Below are positions 44,808-64,000 of a stretch of DNA of 64,000 bases, piece by piece. Below the pieces are notes generated by a model. It was not told the origin of the DNA. It saw nothing but the letters and a program-made list of their open reading frames with translations, and ran no database searches. The translations under genes were made by a program, and so were the position numbers. Numbering within the stretch: the first letter of the stretch is position 1; the number at the start of each line of letters is the position of its first letter. The DNA is from Thermodesulfovibrionales bacterium (GTDB lineage: Bacteria; Nitrospirota; Thermodesulfovibrionia; Thermodesulfovibrionales; JdFR-86): assembly GCA_030682405.1 (NCBI GenBank), contig JAUXOF010000038.1, positions 1,044-65,043 on the forward strand, written 5' to 3'.

Positions 44808-44854
44808 ATATGTATCTTTAAAGGCCCACGAGGGCTATTCAAAGGAGGTGCAGG

Positions 44855-45022
44855 ATGAAGGGTATCGTGAAAAAACTGGGGGACATCTTCTCGGCGGTCG
44901 CATTTGCCGAAGAGGGCGAGCATGAGACGGCAAGGGAGATTATGAGGGGAGTCGAGCCTGAGAAGAAGGCCGAAAGCCCCGAGCCGCTGGGGGTCGGGGG
45001 CTTTTTAGCAGAGGAGAACTGA
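44855..45022 (+). CDS. 55-aa protein carrying the SAVAFAEEGE motif (below the ORF-track size cutoff)
   Basis: AAAGGAGGTG RBS at 44841-44850. MKGIVKKLGDIFSAVAFAEEGEHETAREIMRGVEPEKKAESPEPLGVGGFLAEEN. The stop overlaps the next ATG (TGATG). Confidence 0.55.
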   Translation: MKGIVKKLGDIFSAVAFAEEGEHETAREIMRGVEPEKKAESPEPLGVGGFLAEEN

Positions 45023-45492: not shown

Positions 45493-45563
45493 AAATAGGG
45501 ATAGAACAAAGATATTTTTTTTGTGTGCGTTGAAACTTTATAAAGACCTAAAGGAATAACAAA

Positions 45564-46304: not shown

Positions 46305-46317
46305 CTATACGGAGGTT

Positions 46318-47607: not shown

Positions 47608-47608
47608 C

Positions 47609-48319
47609 ATGCTGATAAAAAACAAAAAAATTTTTAGCCTTGGGATGGTTTTTGCGATAACCTTCCTTGGGGTGCTGGTCCTCATATTCTCGCCGGTCTT
47701 CAAAGGCCAAAACGGCCTTGATTTTGCAGACAACAGCTTCAACAAGCTCTCCAAAGGCTCCTCGTACTTCATCCCCAAGGTGACAAAGGCGGTAAAGGAA
47801 TTCGCCGGAAAGTCGGTATCCGTCACCCTGAAATACGACAAACCCGAGGAGGCGGAGGCCGCGGCCAAGCTCTTCACCACGGCAGGAGCGCAGGCCGAGG
47901 TAAGCGGCGCGGAGCTTAAGGTTCAGGGAGACCTCGGCGCAATCCTTCAGTCCGCGGTCAACGATTCCGACGCAATGTACAAAAACGACGGCAAGACAGT
48001 CGCCGACAGATACGGCATGGACGAGAAGGCCGCAATGAAGAGCTGGTGGACGGCCCTCTCCAAGATGGAAAAGAACATGAAGAAGGAAAAGCTCATCGCG
48101 GAGGGCAAGGTAATCTACGAGGTGAACAAGAAGGCCGTGGAGCCGGGGTACAACTACTACAAAATAGATGCTCAGAATGTGAGCGAACACTCAGGCATGA
48201 TGACCGGGCTGCTCGTCTTCTACGTCGCATACACCATGTGGTGGGGATATGCCATATTCTACCTCTTCGAGGGGGTCGGCCTCACCATGAAGAAGTCAAA
48301 GGTTAAAAAGGAAATATAG
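47609..48319 (+). CDS. Hypothetical bitopic/polytopic membrane protein (partner of the TauE-like permease)
   Basis: AAGGAGAAGG RBS. N-terminal TM (IFSLGMVFAITFLGVLVLIF), a ~150-aa soluble region, and C-terminal TMs (MMTGLLVFYVAYTMWWGYAIFYLF). No family recognised. Confidence 0.6.
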   Translation: MLIKNKKIFSLGMVFAITFLGVLVLIFSPVFKGQNGLDFADNSFNKLSKGSSYFIPKVTKAVKEFAGKSVSVTLKYDKPEEAEAAAKLFTTAGAQAEVSGAELKVQGDLGAILQSAVNDSDAMYKNDGKTVADRYGMDEKAAMKSWWTALSKMEKNMKKEKLIAEGKVIYEVNKKAVEPGYNYYKIDAQNVSEHSGMMTGLLVFYVAYTMWWGYAIFYLFEGVGLTMKKSKVKKEI

Positions 48320-48328
48320 GAGGAGGAT

Positions 48329-48766
48329 ATGAATATATTGGTTCCGGTTGATGGCTCGAAGTGTTCGCTTGAGGGTTTGAAGGTTGCGAGGGATTACGCA
48401 AAAACGAAAGACGCAAACATATACCTGATTAATGTAACACCCTACATTGAGTTTGTTGACCTTGAGATTTCGGCTTCCGAGAGGGAGAAGCTAACACAGA
48501 GCATGGAAAAACGGTCAGACGATATAGTCAACCAGGCTTGTAAGATGCTGTCGGCGCAGGATGTTATCGCGACATGTAAGACTGTTACGGCCTCTGTTTC
48601 CGTGCCCGATGCGATAATAGACTTCGCGGAAAAGGAAAAGATAAACCTCATAATCATCGGCAGTAGAGGCCTGGGCACATCTAAAAAGTTCAGGCTTGGC
48701 AGTATCGCCGCAAAAGTGGTGAGGCATAGCCACTGCGGCGTTTATGTAGTCAAAGAGCCCTGCTAA
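48329..48766 (+). CDS. Universal stress protein (single UspA domain)
   Basis: ILVPVDGS...IIGSRGLGTSKKFRLGS (G-x2-G-x9-GS)...CGVYVV. Confidence 0.85.
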   Translation: MNILVPVDGSKCSLEGLKVARDYAKTKDANIYLINVTPYIEFVDLEISASEREKLTQSMEKRSDDIVNQACKMLSAQDVIATCKTVTASVSVPDAIIDFAEKEKINLIIIGSRGLGTSKKFRLGSIAAKVVRHSHCGVYVVKEPC

Positions 48767-48785
48767 GGCTTATGATTTAAAAAAA

Positions 48786-48813
48786 GGCGGACATGATGTC
48801 CGCCTTTTTTTTT
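48786..48813 (+). terminator. Rho-independent terminator
   Basis: ggcggacat-g-atgtccgcc stem followed by a T9 run. The upstream A-run makes it potentially bidirectional. Confidence 0.8.
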
Positions 48814-48872
48814 AACAGGCGCCCGCATCATTATGTTATGTTAAAATAAAAAAATCTTTAGGGGCTGAAATT

Positions 48873-51128: not shown

Positions 51129-51143
51129 TAAAAAGGAGAAGGC

Positions 51144-51566
51144 ATGCCTGAGAAACTCTTGATAGTGGACGATGAGCCGGATATGCTGAAGCTTTTGAAC
51201 ATGATTATCAAAGAAAGGACGCCGTATGAAACGCTGACCACAAATAACCCCATTGAGGCGCTCAAGCTGGTCCGGCAGGGAGGGTTCGACCTCGTCATAG
51301 CGGACCTGAAGATGCCCGGGCTTGACGGCATGGAACTACTGGATGCGGTGAGGCTCGCTGATGAGGATATCCCCGTCATCATCATAACCGCATATGGCAC
51401 GGTCGAGGCGGCAATAGAGACTATGCGCAGGGGCGGCTTTGACTTCATATCAAAGCCCTTCAGAAAAGAGCAGATACTCTTCACCATAGACAAGGCCCTG
51501 AAATGGGTCGGCCTCCAGAAGGAAAACAGGATACTGAAGGAGCAGCTTAAGAAACTCAGCGGCTGA
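51144..51566 (+). CDS. Stand-alone receiver-domain response regulator (NtrC-type REC plus linker, no output domain)
   Basis: LIVDDEPD...DLVIADLKMPGLDG...KPF, then the linker LQKENRILKEQL and a stop. The 3' end overlaps the convergent gene by 11 nt. Confidence 0.8.
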   Translation: MPEKLLIVDDEPDMLKLLNMIIKERTPYETLTTNNPIEALKLVRQGGFDLVIADLKMPGLDGMELLDAVRLADEDIPVIIITAYGTVEAAIETMRRGGFDFISKPFRKEQILFTIDKALKWVGLQKENRILKEQLKKLSG

Positions 51567-54162
51567 GGTGAAGCCTCAGGAAATCGTTCAAAAACATCTC
51601 GGTGACAGCATCGTTGTACATGGCCATGTCAAGCTGCTTGGTGTAGACCGTCAGCTTTCCCATCTTCTCAAGTGTCTCCTCGATGTCCGACTGCCTGTAT
51701 TTGGTCAGGTTGGCGTCTATCACGTCCTCAATCACGGTTACCCTGAAATCCAGTTTTTTGAGGATATCCGTTATCAGCCTGACCCTCCTTAACCTCCTGT
51801 CCGTGGCGGCCCCTCCGCCCTTAAAAAAGAATTTTATGTAATTGTCGTTTATGTTGTCGCCGGCATATGCCTCCACCATCGAGAAGTGATAGCCGAGCCT
51901 TATGCTGAAATTCATGTAATTGCGGGACACTATCGCATAGCTCTTGCCTCCCATTTTGCGGAGCTCCTCCTCCTGTATGGTGGTCGTATGCGCAACCATC
52001 CCCAGAAACCCCTTGACGTCTGCGGACCTCGGTTCCGGCCATTTCATGCCCGTCAGTCCCCTCAGGAACGCGCTGAAGGGTATGGAGACTATATCCTCAG
52101 GCGCAACCTTCCTTAAATCGCCCTTTATGCCCCCTTCGATATCAAGCAGATGGGCGTCTATGGGGATGCCGGCCTTAAGCGCGCTTGTTTGGGAACCGAG
52201 CCTCTTTGCGTCGCCGGCCTCCGCAAAGGCGACTGCCGAAAGCAGGTCCTCAAGGCTGTCAATGGCCTGCCCCTTGCCTGTCTTGAATATCTCGGCCATC
52301 GCCATCTCATGGACAAATCTCGTTATGTCATGAAACGTCCTGCATGAGTCCGCCCTGAAGTCCTTGTCGTCGGGGTCCACAAGGTTGAGCGGGACTATTA
52401 GCTTCAGAACCCTCTGAAGCGTCTGGAACAGGCGCGTGTCTTTAAAGGGTTCCCTTCGTTTTGTGGCGCACTTAAGCACCTCCTCGACCCTGCCCTCATA
52501 GATGTTGCAGTTAATCGCATCCACTGTCACTTCCTGCCCGTCCCTTATCAGCCGCGTTGCATCGCCGGCATCGAGAATCGTCGGGATGCCGTATTCCCTT
52601 GAAAGGGACGCCATATGCCCGGTGGCGCTGCCTACGTCGGTGACGATGGCAGAGGCCTTGTTCATCACGGTAACGAATTTTGTTGAACTGTGTCTTGCCA
52701 CAAGCACGGCGCCATCGGGGAAATCCTTCAGTCCCTCGTCGTCCCTGAATATAAATGCCTTCCCTGAGGCCGCGCCCTTGCAGGCTATGACCCCCCCGCT
52801 TATAAGGACGTTATACCCCTCCACGCGCAAAGGCACGCTGCATGAAGGCTGCCCCGCCTCAACCGTCATTAACGGCCTGCTCTGAAGGATATTCACGCAG
52901 CCGTCCCGGGCAACGGCCCACTCTATGTCCTGAGGCCTGCCGTAATGTTCCTCAAGGGCAATGGCATAGTCAAAGAGGCTTTCTATCTGTTCGCCTGATA
53001 GAGACGGCCTGTCCCAAAGCCCTTCAGGGACGCCGACCTCCATTATATCGCCTTCAGGGCTGCACACGAGCATCTTCCGCTGCCCGTGCGCGGCCTCGGA
53101 CAGGACGGCCCCGGTCTGTCTTGAGACGATGTACGAATCCGGGGTCTCCGTTCCGTCTACAACTGATTTTCCAAGCCCCCGCATGGCGTTGATGATAACC
53201 TTATCGCCTTCAGGCTCGTTGGGGTCCCTTGTGTAGACCACCCCTCCGGAGGCGGCATCCACCATCGTAAGGACGCCGACTGCCATGACCATATCGTCTT
53301 CGGAAAAACCCCTTGTCTTATAGTAGAAGATGGCCTGATGGGTAAAGAGGCTTGATATTACCTCCTTATATTTGCTGAGAATCGAATCTCCGGGCACATT
53401 CAGAAAAGTGGCGTACTGCCCTGCAAAACTGAAATCCCCGTCTTCGTAGATTGCGCTGCTTCTGACCGCCACCCTCGCAGCCGCACCCGCCTTCAGGCAA
53501 AGCTCGGAATACGCCTTCATGACAGTGTGTTGCAAATCCGCAGGGATTTCCGCATCCGCCACCATGCCCTGTATCTGATTGCTCGTCTCTGTGAGTTCGT
53601 TAAGGTCGTCAATCCCCATCTCCGAAAGCCTTTTGTTTATCCTGTCAGCAAGCCTGTTGTGCTCCATAAACCTCTTGAAGGCATATGCGGTGATTGAAAA
53701 GCCATCCGGCGTCTGGAACTTCAGGCGGTTTTTGATTTCGCCGAGGTGTGCGATTTTGCCGCCGGCGATGCCGGACATCTCCTTTGTAATGGAGGAAAGC
53801 GCAATGGCAAGGTCGCTGACCGGAATCTCAAGTTTGCGGGTCAGGGTGTTTGAGATTTCCTCCTTTATGCCCCCGTAAACTTTATATAACTGCATGTATT
53901 CGCCATTGGAAAGGTCATTCATGTGCTCTATAATCTTAAAAACCCCTTCGGATACATGCAGTACGCTCTCGTTGATATACTGCCTATCAAAGAGGTACTC
54001 CCCGGAAAGCTTCTCCTCCATGTCAGCCATAAGCATCAGGACATTGTTGTTTTCCTTCAGTAGGGACTGAAAAGCAGTATACTTTTTCCTTAATGCCTCC
54101 ATAAGGCCGTCATGCTGAACCTTTTTGGGTTTTTTGCGGAATTTTTCAAAAAAACCCTTCAT
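51556..54162 (-). CDS. PEP-utilising-enzyme family protein: PPDK_N-type ATP-grasp plus swivel phospho-His domain plus ~330-aa non-TIM C-terminal region
   Basis: IAGGKIAHLGEI and VAVRSSAIYEDGDFSFAGQYATFLNV (nucleotide-binding domain). TDVGSATGHMASLSREYGIPT (mobile His domain). The C-terminus lacks the NDLTQ/CGE motifs seen in the ppdK of this window and contains LLSAVAFAEAGD. Confidence 0.75.
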   Translation of the reverse strand: MKGFFEKFRKKPKKVQHDGLMEALRKKYTAFQSLLKENNNVLMLMADMEEKLSGEYLFDRQYINESVLHVSEGVFKIIEHMNDLSNGEYMQLYKVYGGIKEEISNTLTRKLEIPVSDLAIALSSITKEMSGIAGGKIAHLGEIKNRLKFQTPDGFSITAYAFKRFMEHNRLADRINKRLSEMGIDDLNELTETSNQIQGMVADAEIPADLQHTVMKAYSELCLKAGAAARVAVRSSAIYEDGDFSFAGQYATFLNVPGDSILSKYKEVISSLFTHQAIFYYKTRGFSEDDMVMAVGVLTMVDAASGGVVYTRDPNEPEGDKVIINAMRGLGKSVVDGTETPDSYIVSRQTGAVLSEAAHGQRKMLVCSPEGDIMEVGVPEGLWDRPSLSGEQIESLFDYAIALEEHYGRPQDIEWAVARDGCVNILQSRPLMTVEAGQPSCSVPLRVEGYNVLISGGVIACKGAASGKAFIFRDDEGLKDFPDGAVLVARHSSTKFVTVMNKASAIVTDVGSATGHMASLSREYGIPTILDAGDATRLIRDGQEVTVDAINCNIYEGRVEEVLKCATKRREPFKDTRLFQTLQRVLKLIVPLNLVDPDDKDFRADSCRTFHDITRFVHEMAMAEIFKTGKGQAIDSLEDLLSAVAFAEAGDAKRLGSQTSALKAGIPIDAHLLDIEGGIKGDLRKVAPEDIVSIPFSAFLRGLTGMKWPEPRSADVKGFLGMVAHTTTIQEEELRKMGGKSYAIVSRNYMNFSIRLGYHFSMVEAYAGDNINDNYIKFFFKGGGAATDRRLRRVRLITDILKKLDFRVTVIEDVIDANLTKYRQSDIEETLEKMGKLTVYTKQLDMAMYNDAVTEMFLNDFLRLHLSR

Positions 54163-54279
54163 GCCTAATTATACCCCATAAGCCATAATTTTTCATAAAC
54201 CAGACTTCCGGGATGTGAGTGCATTTTTTAAGCTTAAAAACTCTTTTTTTTCAGGGGGTTACAAAGCATAAAAAAAGAC

Positions 54280-54308
54280 TTGACAAAAAAAAGCCTTTCG
54301 GTTAATAT
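54280..54308 (+). promoter_or_regulatory. Sigma-70 promoter for the GntR-headed operon
   Basis: TTGACA (54280-54285), a 17-nt spacer, TAATAT (54303-54308). Confidence 0.55.
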
Positions 54309-54309
54309 C

Positions 54310-54354
54310 ATTTCATTATAATTAAATAGATTATAATGAAATACCTTATAATGA
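54310..54354. promoter_or_regulatory. Operator candidate: perfect 13-bp inverted repeat plus a third half-site
   Basis: atttcattataat-N7-attataatgaaat (54310-54342) and a further ttataatga at 54346-54354. These lie between the -10 box and the GntR ATG at 54356. Confidence 0.55.
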
Positions 54355-54355
54355 T

Positions 54356-55102
54356 ATGATTAAACAAGAACGGTCAGTAAACAGGGACAAGCCCCAAAAG
54401 CTCTATATCCAGCTCCTCGATATAATAAGGGAAAGGATAGAGGCTGGCGAATGGCCTGTAGGCTCGCAGATACCTATAGAGGAGGAGCTATGCAGGGTTT
54501 ATGGAGTGAGCAAGGCCACAGTGAGGTTTGCGGTCTTGGAGCTTGTAAGAAAGGGCTATCTCAAGCGGCAGCAGGGCAAGGGCACCTTCGTCTGTAAAAG
54601 GGTCATACCCGAAGGGCTTACAATGTCAAGCAGCTTCAAGGAGCTGATGCTTGAGCACGGGATAGCCTACACCACCATACTGCTCGCCCAGACGGTGCTG
54701 ATGCCGATAGACGACCTTGACGTAAAGCTCGAAATCCCTGAAAACACCCATGTCATATACATAAAAAGACTGCGGAGCGTGGAGGGCGAGCCTGCCGTGA
54801 TTCAGGAATCCTTCATCCCACACCACATATGCCCTTCCCTTCTTAAGGAGGATGTTGTGGAAAACTCCCTGTTTGAGCTCTTCGAGAACAAATACGACAT
54901 AACCATTACCGGGGTCAGGGACTTCATAGAGGTCGCATACTCCAGCGCAGGCGAAAGCAAGCTCCTTGGGCTTCCGAAAGACTCGCCGGTGCTGCTGCTT
55001 GAGCAGCACTTCTACTCAGGGGAGTCGCAGATAATGTACATGCGCTCTGTGAAGCGCCCGGAGAGGTTCAGGCTGTCCATAGATTTCAAGAAAAAGGAGT
55101 GA
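54356..55102 (+). CDS. GntR-family (HutC-type, UTRA) transcriptional regulator, paralogue of 45564..46304
   Basis: IPIEEELCRVYGVSKATVRFAVLELVRKGYLKRQQGKGTFV is nearly identical in the HTH to the other GntR. The effector domain has diverged. Confidence 0.85.
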   Translation: MIKQERSVNRDKPQKLYIQLLDIIRERIEAGEWPVGSQIPIEEELCRVYGVSKATVRFAVLELVRKGYLKRQQGKGTFVCKRVIPEGLTMSSSFKELMLEHGIAYTTILLAQTVLMPIDDLDVKLEIPENTHVIYIKRLRSVEGEPAVIQESFIPHHICPSLLKEDVVENSLFELFENKYDITITGVRDFIEVAYSSAGESKLLGLPKDSPVLLLEQHFYSGESQIMYMRSVKRPERFRLSIDFKKKE

Positions 55103-55145
55103 ACGGTTTCCGTATTTTTGATAAATCAAGGTTAAAGGAGGCTTT

Positions 55146-55667
55146 ATGGCAGGGACTAAGACTGTAAAGGATTTGATGGTCGGCGTTTTTGACTTCCCGC
55201 ACATACCTTATTGGTTCACGATAAGGCAGGCAATCGGAATCATCAGGGTGTCATTTTTAAGCACAAAGAAATACCCCCAGCCCATGGCGATACTCGTGTT
55301 TGACGAAAAGTACAACCTTCTGGGCACGCTCGGTCTTAAGGATATCCTGAGGGGGCTTGAGCCGAGATTTCTAAGGCCCACGACAAAGGCGCAGGTGCAT
55401 GCAGAGGACGAATCCGGGCTTTCCGTACTTTGGGACACCCCCTTTGACACGGAATCTAAAAAGAACGCAGAGCGGCCTGTAAGCGAGGTTATGACTTCTA
55501 CAAAGTTCTTCGTCAAACCCGAAGACCCCATCACAAAGGCGGCATACCTCATGGTCCATAACGACCTTGCCCTGCTGCCCGTTCTGGAGGATAAGAAGAA
55601 GTTTGTGGGATTGATAAGGATGATAGAGATATTCGATGAACTGTCAACCGCAATCTTAGCGGAATAA
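55146..55667 (+). CDS. CBS-domain pair protein
   Basis: Two CBS-like units (VKDLMVG...LLGTLGLKDILRGL and VSEVMTSTKFFVKPEDPITKAAYLMVHNDLALLPVLEDKKKFVGLIRMIEI). Confidence 0.7.
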   Translation: MAGTKTVKDLMVGVFDFPHIPYWFTIRQAIGIIRVSFLSTKKYPQPMAILVFDEKYNLLGTLGLKDILRGLEPRFLRPTTKAQVHAEDESGLSVLWDTPFDTESKKNAERPVSEVMTSTKFFVKPEDPITKAAYLMVHNDLALLPVLEDKKKFVGLIRMIEIFDELSTAILAE

Positions 55668-55679
55668 AGGAGATACTAT

Positions 55680-57230
55680 ATGGAAAAGAAAAACAAAACT
55701 CAGCAGGGACTGCCGGAGCCTCCGCAGGAGATACTGGTTGCAACGCCAAAAATACCTTTTGACTGGAAAAGGGTTTTTTTCATATTGCTCGGGCTTTCTC
55801 TTTTCCTTGTTATTTATTATATGCCGCCGTGGAAGGAAGCCCTTGACCCGACCGGCAAGGCATTCTCCCTTTCTAAAGAAGGCAAAGGAGCAATCGCACT
55901 CTTCCTTTTGGCGGGCATATGGTGGGTGTTTGAGGTAGTGCCCATCGGCGTGACGGCCTTAGCCATAGGCGTGTTTCAGGCGCTTTTCGGCATCCGTTCG
56001 GCAAAAGAGGCGTTCAAGGATTTCATGGACCCTTCGGTCATGTTCATCTTCGGCTCTGTGGTGGTCGGGCTTGCGTTCACAAAATCCGGCCTGACAAAGC
56101 GTCTCGCCTATAAGATGCTCGGCGTGGTCGGCGAGAATACAGGCATGATACTCCTCGGCTGTCTTGTGGTCACGGCGGGGCTTGCCCACTTCATGGCGCA
56201 CACCGCTGCCGCAGCAACCGTATTCCCTATCCTTTTGGCCATCTACGCACTATACGGCGAGGGCGACAAGCCGTCCAATTTCGGCAAGGCCCTTTTTATA
56301 GGCATGGCGTATGCGGCTGGAGCGGGCAGCATCATTACATTCTTAGGCGCGGCCCGTGGCCCGGCGGCTGCGGGCATGTTCAAGGAGTTCACCGGCAGGG
56401 ACGTCGGGTTTTTCGAGCTTACGAAATACATGTTCCTCGTCGGCTGGCTCATGGTATTTATTATCTGGGGTTACCTTATGATATTCCTTAAACCGGAAAA
56501 GAAGGTCATAGCCGGGCTGAAAGAAAAGGTGAAAAAGCTCTCCAAGGAGCTCGGCCCCGTGACGAGGGACGAGAAGTTCGTCATCTTCTGCGTCATCGGC
56601 GTGGTGATAGTAATGTCTTTACAGTCCCTTGTGCCGGCCCTCAAGTCCATGGACAGGGCGGCCATAATGCTCATCTCCACCCTCCTCTTTTTCGTATTCA
56701 AGGTGCTTACCGTGAAGGAGCTTGAGGAAATCCCGTGGAACATAATACTCCTTTTCAGCGGTGCGATGAGCATCGGGTTCTGCCTCTGGCAGACAGGGGC
56801 CGCACAATGGATGGCTGTCAACTGGCTCGTGATGTTCCAGAAGGCGCACTGGCTCGTATTCGTGCTGAGCATAGCGACATTCGTCCTCCTTATGACGAAC
56901 TTCATAATGAACGTGGCGGCTATTGCGATTTCGCTGCCGGTCTCTCTGGTCATCGCCCAGTATCTGGGCGTGGCCCCTGATGTGATATTTTACGCCTCTC
57001 TGGTCACCGCGGGCATGCCCTTCCTGCTCCTCATCGGAGCGGCCCCCAATGCAATCGCTTATGAATCCAAGCAGTTTACTACGGGCGAGTTCTTCAAACA
57101 CGGGATACCGATGAGCATTATACTGATAGTCGTCCTCGGCGCGGCCCTTATCACCATATGGCCGCTTTTCGGCATGCCGATTACGCTCCCGGCTTCAGCC
57201 GTGGAGATAACGAATGCGGTTGTGAGGTAG
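55680..57230 (+). CDS. DASS/SLC13-type anion permease (ion-transporter superfamily)
   Basis: 516 aa with about 12+ TM. GIWWVFEVVPIGVTAL and a later LPVSLVIAQ...GAAPNAIAY resemble the two hairpin/SNT-type regions of DASS carriers. Confidence 0.65.
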   Translation: MEKKNKTQQGLPEPPQEILVATPKIPFDWKRVFFILLGLSLFLVIYYMPPWKEALDPTGKAFSLSKEGKGAIALFLLAGIWWVFEVVPIGVTALAIGVFQALFGIRSAKEAFKDFMDPSVMFIFGSVVVGLAFTKSGLTKRLAYKMLGVVGENTGMILLGCLVVTAGLAHFMAHTAAAATVFPILLAIYALYGEGDKPSNFGKALFIGMAYAAGAGSIITFLGAARGPAAAGMFKEFTGRDVGFFELTKYMFLVGWLMVFIIWGYLMIFLKPEKKVIAGLKEKVKKLSKELGPVTRDEKFVIFCVIGVVIVMSLQSLVPALKSMDRAAIMLISTLLFFVFKVLTVKELEEIPWNIILLFSGAMSIGFCLWQTGAAQWMAVNWLVMFQKAHWLVFVLSIATFVLLMTNFIMNVAAIAISLPVSLVIAQYLGVAPDVIFYASLVTAGMPFLLLIGAAPNAIAYESKQFTTGEFFKHGIPMSIILIVVLGAALITIWPLFGMPITLPASAVEITNAVVR

Positions 57231-57234
57231 GGTC

Positions 57235-57948
57235 ATGGGCTTTGAGAAAGTCTTAGAGAAGATTTTCCCCGGAGCACTCGGGGAGGTCGGGTTTGTGCAG
57301 AAGACATACAGCGAACTTAAGCCCATGGGGTTTCGCTCGGAAAACACCATAGTGTCTGTCTGTATATGCAGGGACGAAATCTCCCAGTCCGTGCGGAGCA
57401 TCATAAAGCACGTATGGGGGGAGGCGTTCAACCTCTCAAGCCTTGCGGGCATGTTCTTTGCCGGAAAGACAGGCATTAAGGCCGCTATGCACCACGCCCC
57501 AATCACTGACGGCAAGGAACGGTATGTGTTTTACGGCATGTCCCACATTGCAATAGACAGTGAGGGCCGAATCGGGACATGCAGGAGGACGGGAAGGCAG
57601 GAGGAGTCGGTTGCATGCGGCGCGCTGGCCGCATTCCAGGAAGAGATGGCCGGCGGAAGGCTCGATGTCTCACTTGACATTGAGGACGTGGAGCAGAGCC
57701 TGATAAAGATGCGCCTGATAAAGAAAATAACATATGGCCGCATCCCGGAACTCTTGGAGCTTACGAAAATCACCCTGTCTGCGATTCAGGAGGACCTCGA
57801 AAACACCCTCAAAGGGGTTGTGGACACAGAAAAAAGCGACTACGCCCTTATAACCGGCATACAGGTACACGGCCCGGACGGAAACTACGTATGGCCCTCG
57901 TCCTCTTACGCGATTGTAAACAGAGAAAGACATGAAATCAAGCTTTAA
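57235..57948 (+). CDS. Soluble protein resembling the LCIB/LCIC (beta-carbonic-anhydrase-fold) family
   Basis: 237 aa. Candidate Cys/His/Cys metal ligands lie in SVCICRDE (C43/C45), GMSHIAID (H104) and SVACGAL (C128), with spacing like beta-CA-fold LCIB proteins. The assignment is from memory of the family pattern, not a search. Confidence 0.4.
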   Translation: MGFEKVLEKIFPGALGEVGFVQKTYSELKPMGFRSENTIVSVCICRDEISQSVRSIIKHVWGEAFNLSSLAGMFFAGKTGIKAAMHHAPITDGKERYVFYGMSHIAIDSEGRIGTCRRTGRQEESVACGALAAFQEEMAGGRLDVSLDIEDVEQSLIKMRLIKKITYGRIPELLELTKITLSAIQEDLENTLKGVVDTEKSDYALITGIQVHGPDGNYVWPSSSYAIVNRERHEIKL

Positions 57949-57960
57949 GAAGGAGAAAAT

Positions 57961-58449
57961 ATGAAGGCAAAGGACTTGATGATACCGCTTCGGGAATACC
58001 TGAGGCCGGACACTACGCTTAGAGAGGCTGCAAACATCCTGAGGACTGCAAACCGGGGCGAGGAGAAGGTCGGAGTCAAAGGGCTTCCCGTGCTTGATGA
58101 AAGCGGAAAGATGATAGGGTTTCTATCTATAGGCGACATTCTGAAGGCCGTGTTCCCCTCGTACATGTCCCTTATGGACTTAGGGGACTTCACGTGGGAC
58201 GGCATGGTAGAGGACATGGCAAAAAAAGCAGGGGGCAAAAAGGTCTCGGACATGATGACCAAAAAAGTCATAAGCGTAAACGAGGACTCATCCCTGATGG
58301 AGTGCGTTGACCACATGCTCAAAAACAACGTAAAGAGGCTTCCGGTAATAAGCAAAGACGGCGGGGTTACAGGGATTCTCTACGAAAGGGACGTGTTTTT
58401 TGCAATCACAAAGGCAATGCTTGAGGAAAATCAGGGAGGTGCGAAATGA
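57961..58449 (+). CDS. CBS-domain pair protein
   Basis: MKAKDLMIPL...GLPVLDESGKMIGFLSIGDILKAV and VSDMMTKKVISVNEDSSLMECVDHMLKNNVKRLPVISKDGGVTGILYERDV. The stop overlaps the next start. Confidence 0.8.
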   Translation: MKAKDLMIPLREYLRPDTTLREAANILRTANRGEEKVGVKGLPVLDESGKMIGFLSIGDILKAVFPSYMSLMDLGDFTWDGMVEDMAKKAGGKKVSDMMTKKVISVNEDSSLMECVDHMLKNNVKRLPVISKDGGVTGILYERDVFFAITKAMLEENQGGAK

Positions 58450-59807
58450 CGCACGAGGCAGCGCAGCCCTTTATAATGGATACGGCCTTCTGGACTGCTA
58501 CGATAATATTTCTTATGGCCTATGCGGTAATCGTCTCAGAGAAGATACATAAGACCATAGTGGCGATATTCTGCGCGTCCCTCATGCTTGTCCTCAAGAT
58601 ACTTCACCAGCACGAGGCCTTTCATGTGGAGGAGTTCGGGGTGGACTGGAACGTCATATTCCTGCTGATAAGCATGATGGTGATAATCAACCTGATGAGG
58701 CCGACCGGCGTTTTTGAATACATAGCGATTAAGAGCGCAAAATGGGGCAGGGGCGAGCCGTTCAGGATAATGGCCATTTTTGCGATAGTCACTGCCGTCC
58801 TCAGCGCCTTGCTTGATAACGTTACAACAGTGCTGCTCATCACGCCTGTCACGCTCCTCATAGCCGACGCCCTTGAGGTGGACCCTATACCGTATCTCAT
58901 CTCCTGCGTTCTGGCCTCAAACATAGGCGGCACGGCCACACTGATAGGAGACCCGCCGAATATAATGATAGCCTCAAAGGCGCAGCTTAATTTCATGGAC
59001 TTCATCTACCACCTGTCGCCAATAGTCATAATCATAATGGTCTTCTATGTCTTCGCGATAAAGCTCATCTGGGGCAAAAAGCTCGTGACGAGGGACGAAC
59101 TTAAGCAGAGGATAATGTCCATGAACGAAAACGAGGCGATTAAGGACCCTGTGATGCTAAAGAAGTCCCTTGTCGTCCTCGGCCTCGTCCTCACGGGTTT
59201 TGTGTTCCACGGCGCGCTTCACTTTCAGCCTGCGACCGTCGCGCTATTCGGCGCAGGGCTTCTTCTTTTGCTTTCAAAGACCCACGAGCCTCATCACATA
59301 CTTGCCGAGGTTGAATGGCCCACGATATTTTTCTTCATTGGGCTTTTCATCATCGTAGGCGGTGTCGTGAAGGTGGGGCTTATAAAGTGGATGTCCGTTC
59401 AGGTGCTTGACATAACGCAGGGCAACCTCTTTGCAACCTCCATGGTTATAATGTGGTTTTCCGCCTTCGCCTCAGCCATAGTGGACAACATCCCCTATGT
59501 GGCCACGATGAACCCCTTGATAGTGGATATGGCGGGTCAATTGTGGCCCGATTTGTCGGGTGTCCAGCTCCTTCATCACCCTGACCTCATGCCTATCTGG
59601 TGGTCACTTGCCCTCGGTGCCTGCCTTGGGGGAAACGGCTCGGCAATCGGGGCCTCGGCAAACGTAATAGTGGTCGGCATGTCCGAGAAGGCCGGCAAAA
59701 AAATATCCTTCATGAAATTCATGGCCTACGGCATGCCGCTTATGATAATGACCGTAATCATCTCGACGGTCTACGTCTGGCTGAGATATTACGTGCTGAA
59801 GATATAG
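58446..59807 (+). CDS. ArsB/NhaD-superfamily (YbiR/SLC13-like) anion permease
   Basis: 453 aa, multi-TM. LLDNVTTVLLITPV and AIVDNIPYVATMNP repeats are typical of the ArsB/NhaD permease fold. Confidence 0.65.
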   Translation: MTHEAAQPFIMDTAFWTATIIFLMAYAVIVSEKIHKTIVAIFCASLMLVLKILHQHEAFHVEEFGVDWNVIFLLISMMVIINLMRPTGVFEYIAIKSAKWGRGEPFRIMAIFAIVTAVLSALLDNVTTVLLITPVTLLIADALEVDPIPYLISCVLASNIGGTATLIGDPPNIMIASKAQLNFMDFIYHLSPIVIIIMVFYVFAIKLIWGKKLVTRDELKQRIMSMNENEAIKDPVMLKKSLVVLGLVLTGFVFHGALHFQPATVALFGAGLLLLLSKTHEPHHILAEVEWPTIFFFIGLFIIVGGVVKVGLIKWMSVQVLDITQGNLFATSMVIMWFSAFASAIVDNIPYVATMNPLIVDMAGQLWPDLSGVQLLHHPDLMPIWWSLALGACLGGNGSAIGASANVIVVGMSEKAGKKISFMKFMAYGMPLMIMTVIISTVYVWLRYYVLKI

Positions 59808-59911
59808 GACAACTTTAGCAGGCTGATAGCAGTCTATGAGGTTTAACCCCGGCCTTGTCGGGCGTGCCGGTTAATGGCATATCTTAGGTGGAGACTGTCA
59901 GAGAGGAGAAC

Positions 59912-59974
59912 ATGTTTGAGTTAAGAGAAAATTATATGTCAAATCCCCTCAAGGCCTTGAGGAGGATGTTATGA
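59912..59974 (+). CDS. Possible 20-codon leader ORF overlapping the nhaD start
   Basis: GAGAGGAGAA RBS, then ATG at 59912. MFELRENYMSNPLKALRRML. The stop TGA overlaps the nhaD ATG (ATGA). Confidence 0.25.
   Translation: MFELRENYMSNPLKALRRML
59947..59962 (+). promoter_or_regulatory. 16-bp perfect palindrome overlapping the nhaD Shine-Dalgarno
   Basis: cctcaaggccttgagg. The 3' arm forms part of GAGGAGGA, 9 nt before the ATG at 59971. Confidence 0.4.
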
Positions 59975-61260
59975 TGACCATGGTAGCAGTCGTCTTCGTG
60001 CTCGCTTACTCGTGCATAGCGGTCGAGCACTACGTTAAAATCAACAAGTCCGCCATAGCCCTTATAGCCGCAGGGCTGATGTGGACGCTATACTCCTTTG
60101 CAAGCCCCACGGGCGTCGAAGGCGTAATCCACCAGCTCACGGAAAAGTTAGGCGAAACAGCGGCAATAGTATTCTTTCTGATATGCGCCATGACCATCGT
60201 CGAGGTGACCGACTCCCACGGCGGTTTTGAGGTCATCACCTCGCGCATCAAGGCCACAAAACTTTCGAGCCTGCTCTGGATAATCGGCTTCATCAGCTTC
60301 TACCTGTCAGCCATATTGGACAACATGACCACCACCATAGTGATGGTCACCCTGATGAAGCGCCTCCTTAAAGACCACAAACAGCGCCTTTTCTTTGCAG
60401 GCATTATCGTGATTGCCGCCAATGCCGGAGGCGCATGGACTCCAATCGGCGACGTAACCACCACCATGCTCTGGATAGGCGGACAAATCACCACGGGCGC
60501 TATCATGAAGGGCCTCTGGATTGCATCCATGGTCAATCTGCTTATCCCCCTGATATTGGCCACCTTATTCATGAAGAGCCTCAAGGGCAATGTCGTTCCG
60601 CCTGACAATGTCGAAAACGGAGTCACCAATACCTCTCAGTTTGAAAAGAACCTGATGTTTTTTATGGGCATAGGCTCCCTGATGTTCGTTCCGGTGTTCA
60701 AGGCCGTTACGCATCTTCCCCCGTACCTCGGCATTCTTCTTGCCTTGGGCGTGCTCTGGCTTGTAGGCAATATACTTCACCGCAATAAGCCCGAAGAGGA
60801 AAAGGAACATCTCACCTTGACCAAGGCCCTCAAGCGCATAGATATGGCAACGGTGGTGTTCTTTATCGGCATCCTGCTTGCCGTCGCCTCCCTTTCTGCA
60901 AACGGCATGCTCCCTGCGCTTGCCGGGTGGCTCGATGCAAAGTTAGGCAACCAGTCTCTGATTGTCATTATCATCGGCCTTGCTTCGGCTGTCATAGACA
61001 ACATCCCTCTTGTGGCCGCTTCAATGGGCATGTACCCGCTCTCCCAGTACCCTACGGACTCATTCCTTTGGGAGTTCATGGCCTATGCTGCAGGCACCGG
61101 AGGCTCTATCCTGATTATCGGCTCAGCCGCTGGCGTGGCAGCCATGGGTCTTGAAAAAATCCAGTTCTTCTGGTATGCCGTGCGCATCGGGCCGCTTGCC
61201 TTTGTCGGGTATTTCGCCGGCATTGCGGCATACATGATTCAATACAAACTTCTTCACTGA
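59971..61260 (+). CDS. nhaD: NhaD-type Na+/H+ antiporter
   Basis: 429 aa. SAILDNMTTTIVMV and SAVIDNIPLVAA repeats and the overall TM pattern are typical of NhaD. Confidence 0.75.
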   Translation: MMTMVAVVFVLAYSCIAVEHYVKINKSAIALIAAGLMWTLYSFASPTGVEGVIHQLTEKLGETAAIVFFLICAMTIVEVTDSHGGFEVITSRIKATKLSSLLWIIGFISFYLSAILDNMTTTIVMVTLMKRLLKDHKQRLFFAGIIVIAANAGGAWTPIGDVTTTMLWIGGQITTGAIMKGLWIASMVNLLIPLILATLFMKSLKGNVVPPDNVENGVTNTSQFEKNLMFFMGIGSLMFVPVFKAVTHLPPYLGILLALGVLWLVGNILHRNKPEEEKEHLTLTKALKRIDMATVVFFIGILLAVASLSANGMLPALAGWLDAKLGNQSLIVIIIGLASAVIDNIPLVAASMGMYPLSQYPTDSFLWEFMAYAAGTGGSILIIGSAAGVAAMGLEKIQFFWYAVRIGPLAFVGYFAGIAAYMIQYKLLH

Positions 61261-61287
61261 GTTTTCAGGTCTCTAAGGAATAAAAAA

Positions 61288-61313
61288 GGGCGGCTTTCAG
61301 GCCGCCCTTTTTT
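61288..61313 (+). terminator. Rho-independent terminator after nhaD
   Basis: gggcggc-tttcag-gccgccc followed by T6. An A6 run precedes the stem. Confidence 0.8.
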
Positions 61314-61620
61314 ATGGGGACAGATGAGAAAAATATGCCCCATGGCCTCGCCGCAGTAACCACATCTCCGAGTTAGCGCCCTCAACCTGCCAATAGAGAA
61401 GAGACAACCGCACCATCCACGAGCCTTTATATAAAACCCGCTTCCGCCTGTCGCTTGCACCCCCCCTACGGTCCTGGTTCGGCTGAACTGGTTCGGGTAG
61501 ACCATGACCGTAAGGCCCGCTTATCATCCATTCATGAGGACCGAGTAATCAGATTAAATTCCCGCCGGGCGTGCCCGGGCACGCCCTTTCCCCCCATGCG
61601 GGCAGGGAGAAGGAGGACGG

Positions 61621-61851
61621 ATGAAGGAACAATCATGCATCAAGCCGGGGTCATTTGAGAGATGGGCGCTTCGGCAGCTTAGAGAAAAAAGGATGTGCAG
61701 GGTGGAGAGTTCCATGACCTGCCTTCCGCTCGGCAACGACCCGATATGCCGGGCCTGCTATGAGGGAGATTTGAGCACCGGCGAGAGGGCTGCGAGCACC
61801 GGCGTAGAAGGCTGCGAGCCGGGATGCGCTCAGAAACGGGTGAGACTGTGA
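61621..61851 (+). CDS. Hypothetical Cys-rich small protein
   Basis: GAAGGAGGA RBS 5 nt upstream. 76 aa with 7 Cys (..CLPLGNDPICRAC..). No family recognised. Overlaps the next ORF. Confidence 0.3.
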   Translation: MKEQSCIKPGSFERWALRQLREKRMCRVESSMTCLPLGNDPICRACYEGDLSTGERAASTGVEGCEPGCAQKRVRL

Positions 61852-62357
61852 GCAGGAGGATTGAGGACCTTTATCCTCCGGTGGCTGAGATGTGCAGGAG
61901 GTTTCTCCATCTCTGCGGACAAAAGGGAATAGAGGCCGTAATCACCTCGACCCTCCGCACTGAAGACGAGCAGCTTGCGCTCTTTGCTCAGGGCAGAAAG
62001 AAACTCTCTTATGTAAACGGCCTCAGGCAGGACGCCGGCCTTCCTCCCATAACCGAGGAGCAGAACAGGCGCATCGTAACTAAAAGCTCCATATCCGTCC
62101 ACCGGTTCGGGTGCGCATTCGATGTTGCGCTTAAGAAGGACGGCGGGGCTGTATGGGATGTAAAGGCAGACCTCAACAGAAACGACATTTCCGACTATGA
62201 GGAGATGGGCCTGACAGGAGAGTCCATAGGCCTCAGATGGGGCGGCAGGTTCCGCTTTAGGGACTACTGCCATTTTGAATACACAGGCGGCCTCGGCATT
62301 GAAGAGCTTGAGGCAGGCGCGCGGCCTCAGGGACCGCGGGAAAAGGAGGATTTATGA
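61824..62357 (+). CDS. Peptidase M15 (VanY/L-alanyl-D-glutamate peptidase type) endolysin
   Basis: SVHRFGCAFD (SxHxxGxAxD zinc motif) and a distal DYCHFEY His. The start is uncertain (the GTG at 61848 is possible). Confidence 0.7.
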   Translation: MRSETGETVSRRIEDLYPPVAEMCRRFLHLCGQKGIEAVITSTLRTEDEQLALFAQGRKKLSYVNGLRQDAGLPPITEEQNRRIVTKSSISVHRFGCAFDVALKKDGGAVWDVKADLNRNDISDYEEMGLTGESIGLRWGGRFRFRDYCHFEYTGGLGIEELEAGARPQGPREKEDL

Positions 62358-62779
62358 GCGTTTTGGGGATGGTTTTGCCTGCCCTGATGCCCGCAGTGGC
62401 GGACGGGCTCAAGGGATTGTTCCAGAGATTTTTCAGAGGGGAAAAGCCTGTAACCGCAGCCGAGCAGATAGAACTCATGCGGGCGGAGACGGAAAAACTA
62501 AGGGCAATAGCCTCGCTTGACCGGCCCTCGGAGAACATCTCCCCTTGGGTTTCAAACCTGAGGGCGAGCTTCAGGTACATTGCGGCAGGGCTGATTATCA
62601 CAGGCACGCTCCTCTTCACCCTCATTTATTTCTGGATGAGCCACGAAAGCCCCGAAGGCAAGGCCCTGCCTGCGGCGCTCGGGGTGCTTGAGCTTTTCCT
62701 TGAACTCTCGGCCTCGGTATTCAGTTTCATGTTCGGCGACAGGGTATACCTGCGCCTCAAGGCGGGAGGGCATAGATGA
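62354..62779 (+). CDS. Holin-like membrane protein (resembles the 3TM GTA-type holin family)
   Basis: An N-terminal amphipathic segment, AEQIELMRAETEKL, then PWVSNLRASFRYIAAGLIITGTLLF and further TMs. 4-nt overlap with the endolysin gene. Confidence 0.45.
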   Translation: MSVLGMVLPALMPAVADGLKGLFQRFFRGEKPVTAAEQIELMRAETEKLRAIASLDRPSENISPWVSNLRASFRYIAAGLIITGTLLFTLIYFWMSHESPEGKALPAALGVLELFLELSASVFSFMFGDRVYLRLKAGGHR

Positions 62780-63120
62780 TAGAAACGGAGTTCATGAAGG
62801 CCCTGATAAACGCAGGGGTCGGAGCTTTCATAGCCCTGCTCATCCTCGTCGGGCTTTACAGGATAGCCCACAGGATAGGGATTGAGTTCGTAAGGGCGCA
62901 GCAGGCTCAGGCCGAGGCCCTTGGAAGGCAGGCCCAGAGCATGGAGGGGCTTACAATGTCCATTCAGGATTTTGTAGGCAGGGACTCGGGAGAGCACAGG
63001 GAGATGCTCGTGCTCCTGAGATTTATAGCACAACAACAGCAAACATTCGACGAGGTGAAGGTTGAACACAACTACCGCAAAAAACAGGCGCATCCGCATT
63101 GCCCTGTTAAATCTTCTTAA
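62776..63120 (+). CDS. Hypothetical phage membrane protein
   Basis: An N-terminal TM (INAGVGAFIALLILVGLY) followed by a Gln-rich coiled region. Start overlaps the previous stop. Confidence 0.45.
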   Translation: MIETEFMKALINAGVGAFIALLILVGLYRIAHRIGIEFVRAQQAQAEALGRQAQSMEGLTMSIQDFVGRDSGEHREMLVLLRFIAQQQQTFDEVKVEHNYRKKQAHPHCPVKSS

Positions 63121-63361
63121 GACCGAGTATCCGGGCGCGCTTGATACAAAGGCCCTACAGTTTGCCATGGACAATCTGGGCTATCCCATGCCGGAGGGAA
63201 GTCTCCATGCGCATCTCCGCTACCTTGAGGAAAAGGGCTGTGCGAAACTTGAGCGCAGGGAGGGCCACGGCTTCAGCATCGCATTTACATATCTTACGGC
63301 AATGGGATGGGACCTCCTTGACGGCCATCTGAAGGAAAGGGGGATAGATGAAGAGCTCTGA
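63062..63361 (+). CDS. Hypothetical phage protein, winged-helix-like
   Basis: GAGGTGAAGG RBS before the TTG. LHAHLRYLEEKGCAKLERREG resembles a wHTH wing. Overlaps the preceding ORF by 59 nt. Confidence 0.4.
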   Translation: MNTTTAKNRRIRIALLNLLKTEYPGALDTKALQFAMDNLGYPMPEGSLHAHLRYLEEKGCAKLERREGHGFSIAFTYLTAMGWDLLDGHLKERGIDEEL

Positions 63362-63632
63362 GACGAAAACCGCGCGCAGGAAAAAGATATCCCCCCCGGC
63401 CTTGGAGGCAGAGATGATAACGGCCCTCATAAGGCGTAAGGAGGAATACGAAAGATACTTCAGCACAAAAGAGGATATAGACCCTAAGGTGGAGCAGGCG
63501 TTTACGAACATAGTCAAGCTCATTATCGAGCTTGCAAGGGGCCGGACTGAGCCTGAAAAGAAAGACCCTGAAGAGATGAAGCGCGTGGCGGAGGAGATAC
63601 TTGAAAGAGAGTACGGCATCAAGAGAAATTAG
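63348..63632 (+). CDS. Hypothetical phage protein upstream of the terminase (small-terminase position)
   Basis: 94 aa, charged and helical. The position directly 5' of the large terminase gene is the only functional hint. Confidence 0.35.
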   Translation: MKSSETKTARRKKISPPALEAEMITALIRRKEEYERYFSTKEDIDPKVEQAFTNIVKLIIELARGRTEPEKKDPEEMKRVAEEILEREYGIKRN

Positions 63633-63705
63633 TAATCCCCCCTGCCCCGCTTTAGTAAACGCCTATGGCTCGGAGCCAACGGCTCATAGAGGGGATGAGG
63701 GGGAA

Positions 63706-64000
63706 TTGCTAAAAATTCTTCTTCCTTACCAGCAGAGGTGGGTGAATGACAAATCCACCCTCAAAATCTGGCTCGCCTCAAGGCAAATAGGAAAGTCCTT
63801 TGCCGTTGCGGTGGAGGCCGTGAACGAGGCGCTTACGTCAAGGTGCGACAACCTCATCCTTTCGTCCTCGGAAAGACAGTCCAAAGAGGTGATGCAAAAG
63901 GTATATTCGCACCTGAGATATTTAAACGAAATGAGCGATGAGGTTGTCGAGGCCGAGAGCGAGACCAAAGAGGAGGTCGTTCTCCCAAACGGCTCGCGCA
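63706..64000 (+). CDS. Phage terminase large subunit, N-terminal part (3' end outside window; not in ORF track)
   Basis: TTG start after GAGGGGATGAGGGGG. MLKILLPYQQRWVNDKSTLKIWLASRQIGKSFAVAVEA... has the YQxxW and RQxGKS Walker-A-like pattern of Mu gp28-type terminases. The frame is open to the window end. Confidence 0.6.
   Translation, partial: MLKILLPYQQRWVNDKSTLKIWLASRQIGKSFAVAVEAVNEALTSRCDNLILSSSERQSKEVMQKVYSHLRYLNEMSDEVVEAESETKEEVVLPNGSR

Follow-up and report, generated by a model that had tools for sequence, protein, structure and literature searches.

An LCIB-family gene alongside a DASS carrier and CBS proteins in a Thermodesulfovibrionales genome: a candidate inorganic-carbon acquisition module

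The prokaryotic families known to take up dissolved inorganic carbon (DIC) are SbtA, BicA/SulP, CmpABCD, Chr, DAB/DAC and NDH-1-Cup (PMC10880623). In algae, LCIB proteins act around the pyrenoid and are not tied to DASS carriers in the studies cited here (PMC8825250, PMC7215798), and the literature treats the theta-type carbonic anhydrases (CAs) as essentially algal. Here we analysed a stretch of 64,000 nucleotides (the window) from a metagenome-assembled genome (MAG) of the Thermodesulfovibrionales, an uncultured, sulfate-reducer-type bacterium, in which a gene for an LCIB/LCIC-family protein lies in a run of seven genes together with those for a GntR regulator, two stand-alone CBS-pair proteins, a DASS/SLC13-family carrier, a further permease and a NhaD antiporter. 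The genome annotation lists the LCIB gene as a ‘hypothetical protein’ and the DASS gene as an ‘SLC13 family permease’, and none of the seven proteins has a Pfam or NCBIfam match to the defining subunits of the known DIC uptake families. We tentatively propose, with rather less than even confidence, that the core of the locus (GntR, the first CBS protein, DASS and LCIB) may be an inducible inorganic-carbon (bicarbonate) acquisition module, combining Na+-coupled uptake with a cytoplasmic CA. A role in inorganic carbon had been put forward in a preliminary description of the locus, and is partly supported by the present analysis.

Domains were assigned to the seven proteins by Pfam and NCBIfam profile searches, which agreed with the families that the preliminary description had named and gave GntR with UTRA, CBS, DASS, LCIB_C_CA, a second CBS protein with two CBS stretches, a CitMHS/ArsB-like permease and NhaD. 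The list of open reading frames places all seven on the plus strand between 54356 and 61260, with gaps of 43, 12, 4, 12, −4 and 163 nt, exactly as had been described:

54356..55102, plus strand: GntR/HutC-subfamily regulator (winged helix and UTRA; PF00392 E=4e-16, PF07702 E=3e-28)
55146..55667, plus strand: stand-alone CBS-pair protein 1 (CBS1), 173 aa (PF00571), partner of the DASS carrier
55680..57230, plus strand: divergent DASS/SLC13-family carrier, 516 aa (PF00939 E=9e-43), a candidate Na+-coupled small-anion (bicarbonate) transporter
57235..57948, plus strand: LCIB/LCIC-family (theta-/beta-type) carbonic-anhydrase-fold protein, 237 aa (PF18599 E=3e-55)
57961..58449, plus strand: stand-alone CBS-pair protein 2 (CBS2), 162 aa (PF00571 in two stretches, E=1e-27), partner of the ArsB/NhaD-like permease
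58446..59807, plus strand: IT-superfamily permease of CitMHS type (ArsB/NhaD/MamN-like; PF03600 E=3e-89)
59971..61260, plus strand: NhaD-type Na+/H+ antiporter, 429 aa (NF038006 166.8 bits, cut-off 80; TIGR00775 393.5 bits, below its cut-off of 577)

The product of the gene at 57235 is clearly a member of the LCIB/theta-CA family. It scored 187.3 bits against the LCIB_C_CA model PF18599 (cut-off 25) over profile positions 5-221 of 223, and according to Pfam it has neither an N-terminal extension nor an extra domain outside the LCIB domain. Its matches among PDB sequences included CrLCIC (5b5x, E=2e-40) and CrLCIB (5k5w, E=1e-38), while the diatom PtLCIB4 was matched at E ~1e-17; the protein is closer to green-algal LCIB/LCIC (136-142 bits) than to the diatom proteins (64-69 bits). 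The Cys/His/Cys pattern from which the likeness to LCIB/LCIC had originally been read stands up to alignment, as Cys45 (VCICRDE), His104 (MSHIAID) and Cys128 (VACGAL) fall on the Cys, His and Cys ligand positions of CrLCIB/LCIC. The theta-CA zinc triad has been defined as C61/H117/C141 of 5B5Y (PMC13147460), and the His-to-Cys spacing of 24 in the window protein is identical to that of 5B5Y. Residues C45, R46, D47, E48, H104 and C128 are invariant among 34 homologues at 59-68% identity and 14 at 42-55%, and the triad and R46/D47/E48 are invariant or nearly so in two broader homologue sets. The AF2 model (pLDDT 87.6) found LCIB structures as its top Foldseek matches (5k5w, 5b5x, 6kfs and 5b5y; TM 0.74-0.88, with 0.81-0.85 to CrLCIB), followed by canonical beta-CAs. 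Both an intact zinc triad and the LCIB fold are thus predicted for this protein.

The LCIB family comprises 1395 cluster representatives (50% identity) at E<=1e-3. Proteins of the streptophyte alga Closterium were among the matches to a profile of 21 short (~240-aa) representatives that are presumed to be bacterial, and in one homologue (P0120) the LCIB domain is joined to a receiver domain of the response-regulator type (PF18599+PF00072, 360 aa). Fusion to a transporter was considered and rejected: the long representatives are ankyrin, EF-hand, amine-oxidase or tandem-LCIB fusions, probably eukaryotic, and none of them carries a transporter.

Gene order was compared across loci taken from reference genomes (11), metagenomes (80) and individual homologue look-ups (13), onto which the seven window proteins were mapped by phmmer. 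The metagenome scan was made with a 14-sequence LCIB alignment and returned mostly the same clade, at 50-66% identity. The DASS gene lies directly upstream of LCIB, on the same strand, in 49 of the 54 loci with more than 1.7 kb of flank 5′ of LCIB, and because this core order recurs in so many independent loci the arrangement is far beyond chance. Among the exceptions are a Rokubacteria locus (L003) with the rearranged order LCIB-GntR-CBS-DASS and a locus (L085) in which a 600-aa Mrp Proton_antipo_M gene ends 30 nt before LCIB. A GntR gene opens the module in 42 related loci, preceding CBS1, which is itself always directly upstream of DASS (gap typically 9-16 nt). CBS2 is similarly tied to its permease, the stop of the one overlapping the start of the other by 4 nt in the window and likewise in 13 of 19 loci. 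The two CBS proteins are distant paralogues (23% identity). In locus L098 the GntR gene is replaced by genes for a histidine kinase and a sigma-54 regulator, with CBS-DASS-LCIB intact.

Downstream of LCIB the content is more variable. The gene or genes that follow it, in 57 loci, encode an ArsB/NhaD-like permease with or without CBS (33), NhaD (7), Mrp (5) or a V-type ATPase (4), so that 49 of the 57 have an ion translocator in this position. NhaD also follows the ArsB-like gene in other loci, the Mrp multisubunit antiporter of L100 has a full Pfam annotation, and subunits A, B, D and I were confirmed for the V-type ATPase operon. The conserved unit is regulator-CBS-DASS-LCIB plus an interchangeable cation-translocating accessory, one version of which is seen in the seven genes of the window. 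Conservation of the order of all seven genes had been put forward as a check; it was found for GntR-CBS-DASS-LCIB and not for the whole run. The accompanying idea that NhaD recycles Na+ is strengthened by the Mrp antiporters or V-type ATPases that take its position in other genomes.

Mrp-type antiporter operons adjoin LCIB at L085:5162-7702 and L100:7001-14744 as well as in L019, L064, L065 and L090, an arrangement that recalls the DabB-DabA and NDH-1-Cup pairings. A small PF05635 (‘23S rRNA-intervening-sequence protein’) gene is found between DASS and LCIB at L042:4345-4731, L069:6515-6901, L100:6611-6982 and others (cluster c7), and a sigma-54 activator gene (L098:7771-9069) directly follows LCIB in L098.

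Neither ArsB nor MamN could be retained as an identity for the permease at 58446-59807. It scored 108, 98 and 81 bits against the ArsB models NF011980, TIGR00935 and NF033877 (cut-offs 457, 415 and 760, respectively) and 187 bits against MamN (cut-off 500); the ArsB structure 10tp gave just 64.5 bits, the NhaD models of NCBIfam were also far below their cut-offs, and the best match was generic CitMHS. It is a full-length paralogue of the downstream NhaD (25% identity, E=7e-19), with which it shares LDN and VDNIP motifs. On the strength of this paralogy and of the interchangeable accessory position, we suggest with low confidence that it is a likelier cation/proton translocator than a second anion importer. 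The preliminary description had both permeases serving the CA-like protein; the DASS protein keeps its place as the candidate anion carrier, and the ArsB-like permease is reread as above. The product of 59971-61260 is classed as a NhaD Na+/H+ antiporter by the NCBIfam model NF038006.

The DASS carrier has diverged from its characterised relatives. It scored 147 bits against PF00939 (cut-off 27), fell ~3 bits short of TIGR00785 (195.4 bits, cut-off 198.6) and aligns with VcINDY over residues 72-494 (E=4e-27). VcINDY and its relatives use two Ser-Asn-Thr (SNT) motifs to bind substrate carboxylates and to form part of both Na+ sites (PMC7553777). In the alignment with VcINDY, the first of these motifs corresponds to A173-H174-T175 and the second to M410-N411-V412, so that neither SNT is present in its standard form, and the L5ab loop reads ‘AARG’ in place of ‘SPPN’, which brings in Arg226. 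The TM10b Pro-Asn and the second hairpin Asn are kept. These departures are not peculiar to the window, as His174 and Arg226 each occur in 52/52 DASS orthologues, Asn411 in 51/52, and the residues of both altered motifs are conserved in 50-52 of the 52. The basic residues are confined to the first half-site. DASS exchangers, by comparison, carry an Arg at Na1 and a His at Na2 as permanent Na+ surrogates (PMC7553777). The window carrier matched solely cotransporter-type DASS structures and yeast PHO90; the LaINDY exchanger gave no match even at E<=10, which by sequence places the carrier outside the exchanger clade. Neither this carrier nor the ArsB-like permease groups with characterised dicarboxylate or arsenite carriers, a grouping that the preliminary description had named as telling against its interpretation.

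We infer that the subfamily has swapped the Na1 half-site for fixed positive charges that contact a small anion, and has kept a Na2-type site. Such a remodelled site would fit a small inorganic anion and a lower Na+ stoichiometry better than a dicarboxylate, although it does not specify which anion. The carrier is far more conserved than its LCIB neighbour, the best 120 homologues being 81-89% identical, as against 59-68% for LCIB. The labels Candidatus Aenigmarchaeota and Proteobacteria/Desulfo- are attached to DASS proteins of 83% and 82% identity, respectively, for which binning errors or transfers are possible.

The small anion could be an inorganic oxyanion. In a sulfur-cycling anaerobe, as the assignment of the host to the Thermodesulfovibrionales suggests, Na+-coupled import by the carrier might bring in sulfate, thiosulfate, sulfite or phosphate, with the CA balancing protons or charge. 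Na+/sulfate carriers are among the members of DASS, and the remodelled part of the window carrier corresponds to the surroundings of Na1 and loop L5ab, where NaS1 binds its small sulfate ion (PMC11584011). A paralogous GntR/UTRA-TauE module, TauE being the sulfite-exporter family, also lies 8 kb upstream. Felce and Saier reportedly noted in 2004 that CAs are fused to, or lie beside, SulP sulfate-type carriers, with which the SulP-containing locus L104 described below may be compared. Sulfate transport by NaS1 nevertheless requires both SNT motifs (PMC11584011), the first of which is absent from the window carrier. Sulfate-activation or sulfate-reduction genes were not linked to the module in the loci examined, and it is hard to see what a dedicated CA would contribute to sulfate import. 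We regard oxyanion uptake as quite improbable.

If the anion is instead bicarbonate, the parts of the module can be fitted into a single scheme, in which the direction of transport, the ion coupling and the ligands of the CBS proteins and the regulator are proposed along with the substrate. The DASS carrier would import bicarbonate (or carbonate) with one Na+ at the retained second (Na2-type) site, while His174 and Arg226, replacing the first Ser-Asn-Thr/Na1 site, would contact the small anion. The cytoplasmic LCIB-type CA would then equilibrate imported bicarbonate with CO2 for CO2- or bicarbonate-using carboxylation enzymes. NhaD would export the co-transported Na+ and return the proton consumed in dehydration, a job that Mrp, a V-type ATPase or an ArsB/NhaD-like paralogue would do elsewhere. 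Summed, Na+/HCO3− symport, dehydration (one H+ consumed) and Na+/H+ antiport would amount to a pH-neutral import of H2CO3 driven by the membrane potential, and this would explain why an antiporter is often co-encoded. By our own stoichiometric reasoning, the presence of a Na+/H+ antiporter gene in the operon is easier to reconcile with net DIC uptake than with acid extrusion. The CBS proteins may bind an adenine nucleotide and switch the carriers off at low energy, in parallel to SbtB on SbtA, and a GntR/UTRA repressor bound to a promoter-overlapping palindrome may open the operon in response to a carbon-status metabolite.

The same components could serve a cytoplasmic pH/Na+ stress island, in which the CA, the anion carrier and the Na+/H+ antiporters would buffer pH rather than supply carbon. 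NhaD and Mrp are classic alkaline/Na+ stress antiporters, and, in the window and its relatives alike, the module has universal stress proteins (USPs), CBS proteins and two-component systems around it; leakage of CO2 would, moreover, become a function and not a cost. Against this, the pH-neutral sum set out above argues against a purely defensive role, as the module would move carbon and not protons unless Na+ left by an ATPase. The tight CBS-DASS-LCIB coupling and the metabolite-type repressor also resemble a substrate-specific system. We therefore hold a stress island to be rather improbable.

The control elements of the operon are as follows:

54280..54308, plus strand: sigma-70-like promoter candidate TTGACA-17-TAATAT upstream of the GntR gene (consensus scan, 10/12 matches, pattern match only)
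54310..54342, no strand: candidate GntR operator, a perfect 13-nt inverted repeat ATTTCATTATAAT-N7-ATTATAATGAAAT that abuts the 3′ side of the −10 element
61282..61313, no strand: bidirectional intrinsic terminator A6-GGGCGGC-loop-GCCGCCC-T6, 22 nt past the nhaD stop (sequence read and RNA fold)

The inverted repeat at 54310-54342 is the obvious operator candidate for the GntR protein. It is 100% complementary and unique in the window, with 0 expected in shuffles, and a third half-site lies downstream of the palindrome at 54346-54357. Its sequence is not conserved across orthologous loci, where only a loose TTATAA-type theme recurs, with TTATAA(C/T)-type palindromes 30-50 nt 5′ of GntR in some of them. 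The strong terminator said to close the operon was found again: although a simple scan of the window missed the hairpin, it folds at −31.7 kcal/mol (z = −6.0), and 0/200 shuffles were equally stable. A permissive Rfam scan of 50000-64000 gave just sub-threshold sRNA-like matches over the terminator and no riboswitch in the 163-nt gap before nhaD, a gap that also has no significant RNA structure (z = −1.0).

The regulator itself carries both domains that define its subfamily (PF00392, 58.9 bits; PF07702, 98.7 bits). No NCBIfam equivalog model reached its cut-off, and the neighbours were TreR, HutC, PhnF and similar. HutC-type GntR regulators with a UTRA domain typically sense organic metabolites, and an organic ligand suits this protein at least as well as a signal of carbon status. 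Divergent from the GntR gene is a further gene that may point the same way:

51556..54162, minus strand: PEP-synthase-like protein, 868 aa, with PPDK_N (ATP-grasp) and PEP-utilizers (phosphohistidine swivel) as its only Pfam domains

Taken together, these genes could make up a module for the catabolism or assimilation of an organic anion. The DASS carrier would import an organic acid (a mono-/dicarboxylate or similar), which would also be the GntR/UTRA ligand; the PEP-synthase-like dikinase would activate it or its product, and the CA would either supply bicarbonate for carboxylation or hydrate CO2 from decarboxylation. The functionally described DASS members considered here, including those matched in the PDB, are all di-/tricarboxylate or sulfate carriers (PMC7553777, PMC11584011), and CA genes are often co-located with carboxylase genes (PMC13147460). 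Homologues of the PEP-synthase-like protein (cluster c4) are divergent from GntR in 26 related loci (L001, L019, L092, L100 and others; the gene is duplicated in L100), and the gene is a conserved neighbour that is probably co-regulated with the operon. The protein retains the phosphohistidine swivel GSATGHMAS and the ATP-grasp domain, but its C-terminal 309 aa, which stand in place of the PEP/pyruvate-binding domain, have no Pfam match. PDB PEP synthases align to residues 120-566 only, and a single-sequence AF2 model of the C-terminal region was unusable (pLDDT 35). The lack of this binding domain counts against an organic substrate, as do the loss of the carboxylate-binding SNT motif 1 and the alteration of motif 2. 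Furthermore, in the loci examined the module has no conserved gene for catabolism or for a carboxylase, and its variable downstream genes encode ion translocators, not enzymes. An organic-anion module is thus unlikely, if still a serious contender.

More distant LCIB homologues place the bicarbonate reading in a wider context. Linkage to DASS is a feature of LCIB genes whose products are at least ~53% identical to that of the window. At L104:4647-7831, a SulP+STAS transporter gene is followed 581 nt further on, in the same orientation, by the gene for a 44%-identical homologue, and a CBS gene is close by. Because BicA, the bicarbonate carrier of cyanobacteria, belongs to SulP (PMC10880623), this is an independent association of LCIB with the transporter family of BicA, and LCIB-type genes are therefore paired with secondary anion carriers of two unrelated superfamilies. 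In a Chloroflexota MAG (L096:3269-10132), LCIB sits between two ATPase genes of a periplasmic-binding-protein ABC-transporter operon, followed by a gene with an allophanate-hydrolase C-terminal domain. We take this ABC operon to be Urt-like, and the arrangement presumably reflects a link to bicarbonate-dependent urea carboxylation, which we count in favour of an inorganic-carbon role. A deltaproteobacterium has an LCIB homologue near three Proton_antipo_M genes, and in a Nitrospira genome a distant homologue stands alone. In two unrelated contigs of the same arrangement, LCIB homologues ~30% identical follow Redoxin, then a DsbD_TM-like membrane-protein gene (L099) or an unannotated 277-aa gene (L101). 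Both contigs also carry a WhiB gene, which we take as an actinobacterial sign.

Two further points favour bicarbonate acquisition. The CBS-DASS-LCIB core persists under both a change of regulator (L098) and rearrangement (L003), and the invariant His and Arg of the carrier appear to sit where NaS1 binds its small inorganic anion, near Na1 and L5ab. The weight on the other side is nonetheless considerable. To our knowledge, no DASS protein has been reported to carry bicarbonate. The term DASS is absent from a review of the DIC toolkit, which also leads one to expect that a cytoplasmic CA combined with a HCO3− importer would leak CO2 and waste the ion gradient (PMC10880623). The nearest solved relatives of the LCIB protein, CrLCIB and CrLCIC, are inactive as CAs in vitro (PMC8825250), and the Arg of their C-R-D-E motif is also present, and invariant, in the bacterial proteins. 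At <=52% identity, no LCIB homologue showed DASS linkage in the loci examined. To these must be added the organic effectors usual for HutC-type regulators and the conserved divergent PEP-synthase-like enzyme, which hints at an organic substrate; autotrophy of the host is also not an established premise.

The inactivity of the algal proteins leads to a different view of the LCIB homologue. Chlamydomonas LCIB/LCIC lack CA activity in vitro, which prompted the idea of a one-way ‘CO2 pump’ (PMC8825250). By analogy with DabA-DabB or CupA-NDH-1, the bacterial protein, instead of being a free CA, might hydrate CO2 one way only and in dependence on an ion-coupled membrane partner, DASS or, in some genomes, a Mrp-type Proton_antipo_M complex, which would set the direction. 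Were this so, it would explain how CrLCIB/LCIC, with the same C-R-D-E motif, can be inactive in vitro yet needed for CO2 uptake, and, besides adding a bacterial CO2/HCO3− pump of a new kind, would supply the mechanism that is missing for algal LCIB. We give this possibility only a slim chance.

Beyond the PEP-synthase-like gene, a regulatory/stress island extends over 40944-51566. It contains a tandem USP, a HAMP histidine kinase together with a sigma-54 response regulator, and the paralogous GntR/UTRA gene (its product is 38% identical to that of the operon), behind which come genes for a TauE-family anion permease and a USP and then for a Cache-PAS histidine kinase and a receiver protein. 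In L092, too, this set borders the module. On the other side, phage-like genes at 61824-63632 begin ~500 nt after the terminator and encode an endolysin (phrog_2649, E=6e-22) and two PHROG proteins without known function; no tRNA gene was found at the junction between them and the operon.

Should bicarbonate prove to be the substrate, a DASS carrier with a CBS sensor and an LCIB-type CA would add a new family to the prokaryotic inorganic-carbon transporters, with a wide distribution among the anaerobic Nitrospirota of groundwater and sediments, which use carbon-fixation routes whose inorganic-carbon supply is poorly understood. The locus also provides a first bacterial, operon-level functional context, and with it a genetic handle, for LCIB, a key and mechanistically unresolved part of the CO2-concentrating mechanism of algae, the transfer of which is an aim of crop-engineering projects; an answer on the bacterial module would bear on how LCIB works in algae. 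In addition, the A-H-T in place of the first SNT motif, which has been described as highly conserved among DASS proteins, and the added invariant Arg constitute a natural experiment on changes of substrate and ion coupling in an elevator carrier.

Our literature search, which also covered DASS with bicarbonate, found no published description of this operon or of bacterial LCIB operons, in keeping with the preliminary description, which knew of no described system of such composition. The LCIB-family protein resembles Chlamydomonas LCIB/LCIC and diatom PtLCIB3/4 in family, fold and Cys-His-Cys triad, and has the C-R-D-E motif in common with the green-algal ones, but unlike the algal proteins it is encoded in an operon with DASS, CBS proteins and Na+ translocators. 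Similarly, the DASS carrier shares its fold family, the second hairpin Asn and the TM10b Pro-Asn with VcINDY and NaS1, and differs from them in the A-H-T of motif 1 and the invariant L5ab Arg. Its Arg and His recall the Na+ surrogates of LaINDY-type exchangers, yet they occupy one half-site only and there is no sequence match.

Among DIC systems, the proposed logic is nearest to that of SbtA/SbtB, in which a PII-like nucleotide-sensing regulator acts on the cyanobacterial Na+/HCO3− symporter: both would have a Na+-dependent bicarbonate carrier, an adjacent small adenine-nucleotide sensor and Na+/H+ antiport to recycle Na+. There is no homology, however, the carrier being DASS and not SbtA and the sensor a CBS pair and not PII-like, and a co-encoded cytoplasmic CA is something that cyanobacteria avoid (PMC10880623). 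BicA/SulP and the SulP-CA pairs or fusions likewise tie a secondary anion carrier genetically to a CA, but there the carrier is SulP with STAS in cis and the CA a canonical beta-CA, as opposed to an IT/DASS elevator carrier with CBS in trans and an LCIB-type CA. As in DAB/DAC and NDH-1/Cup, the gene for a soluble, beta-CA-like or CA-like subunit accompanies that for a membrane partner that translocates cations, as the Mrp genes beside LCIB in L085 and L100 illustrate; the module has no DabA (PF10070) or Cup homologue, its constant partner is DASS and not Proton_antipo_M, and any physical complex would be hypothetical. To judge from its genes, the module would work like SbtA/SbtB, SulP-CA pairs or DAB but belongs to none of those families, and our preferred reading is an inorganic-carbon toolkit of transporter, CA and sensor whose components had not been seen in such a role before.

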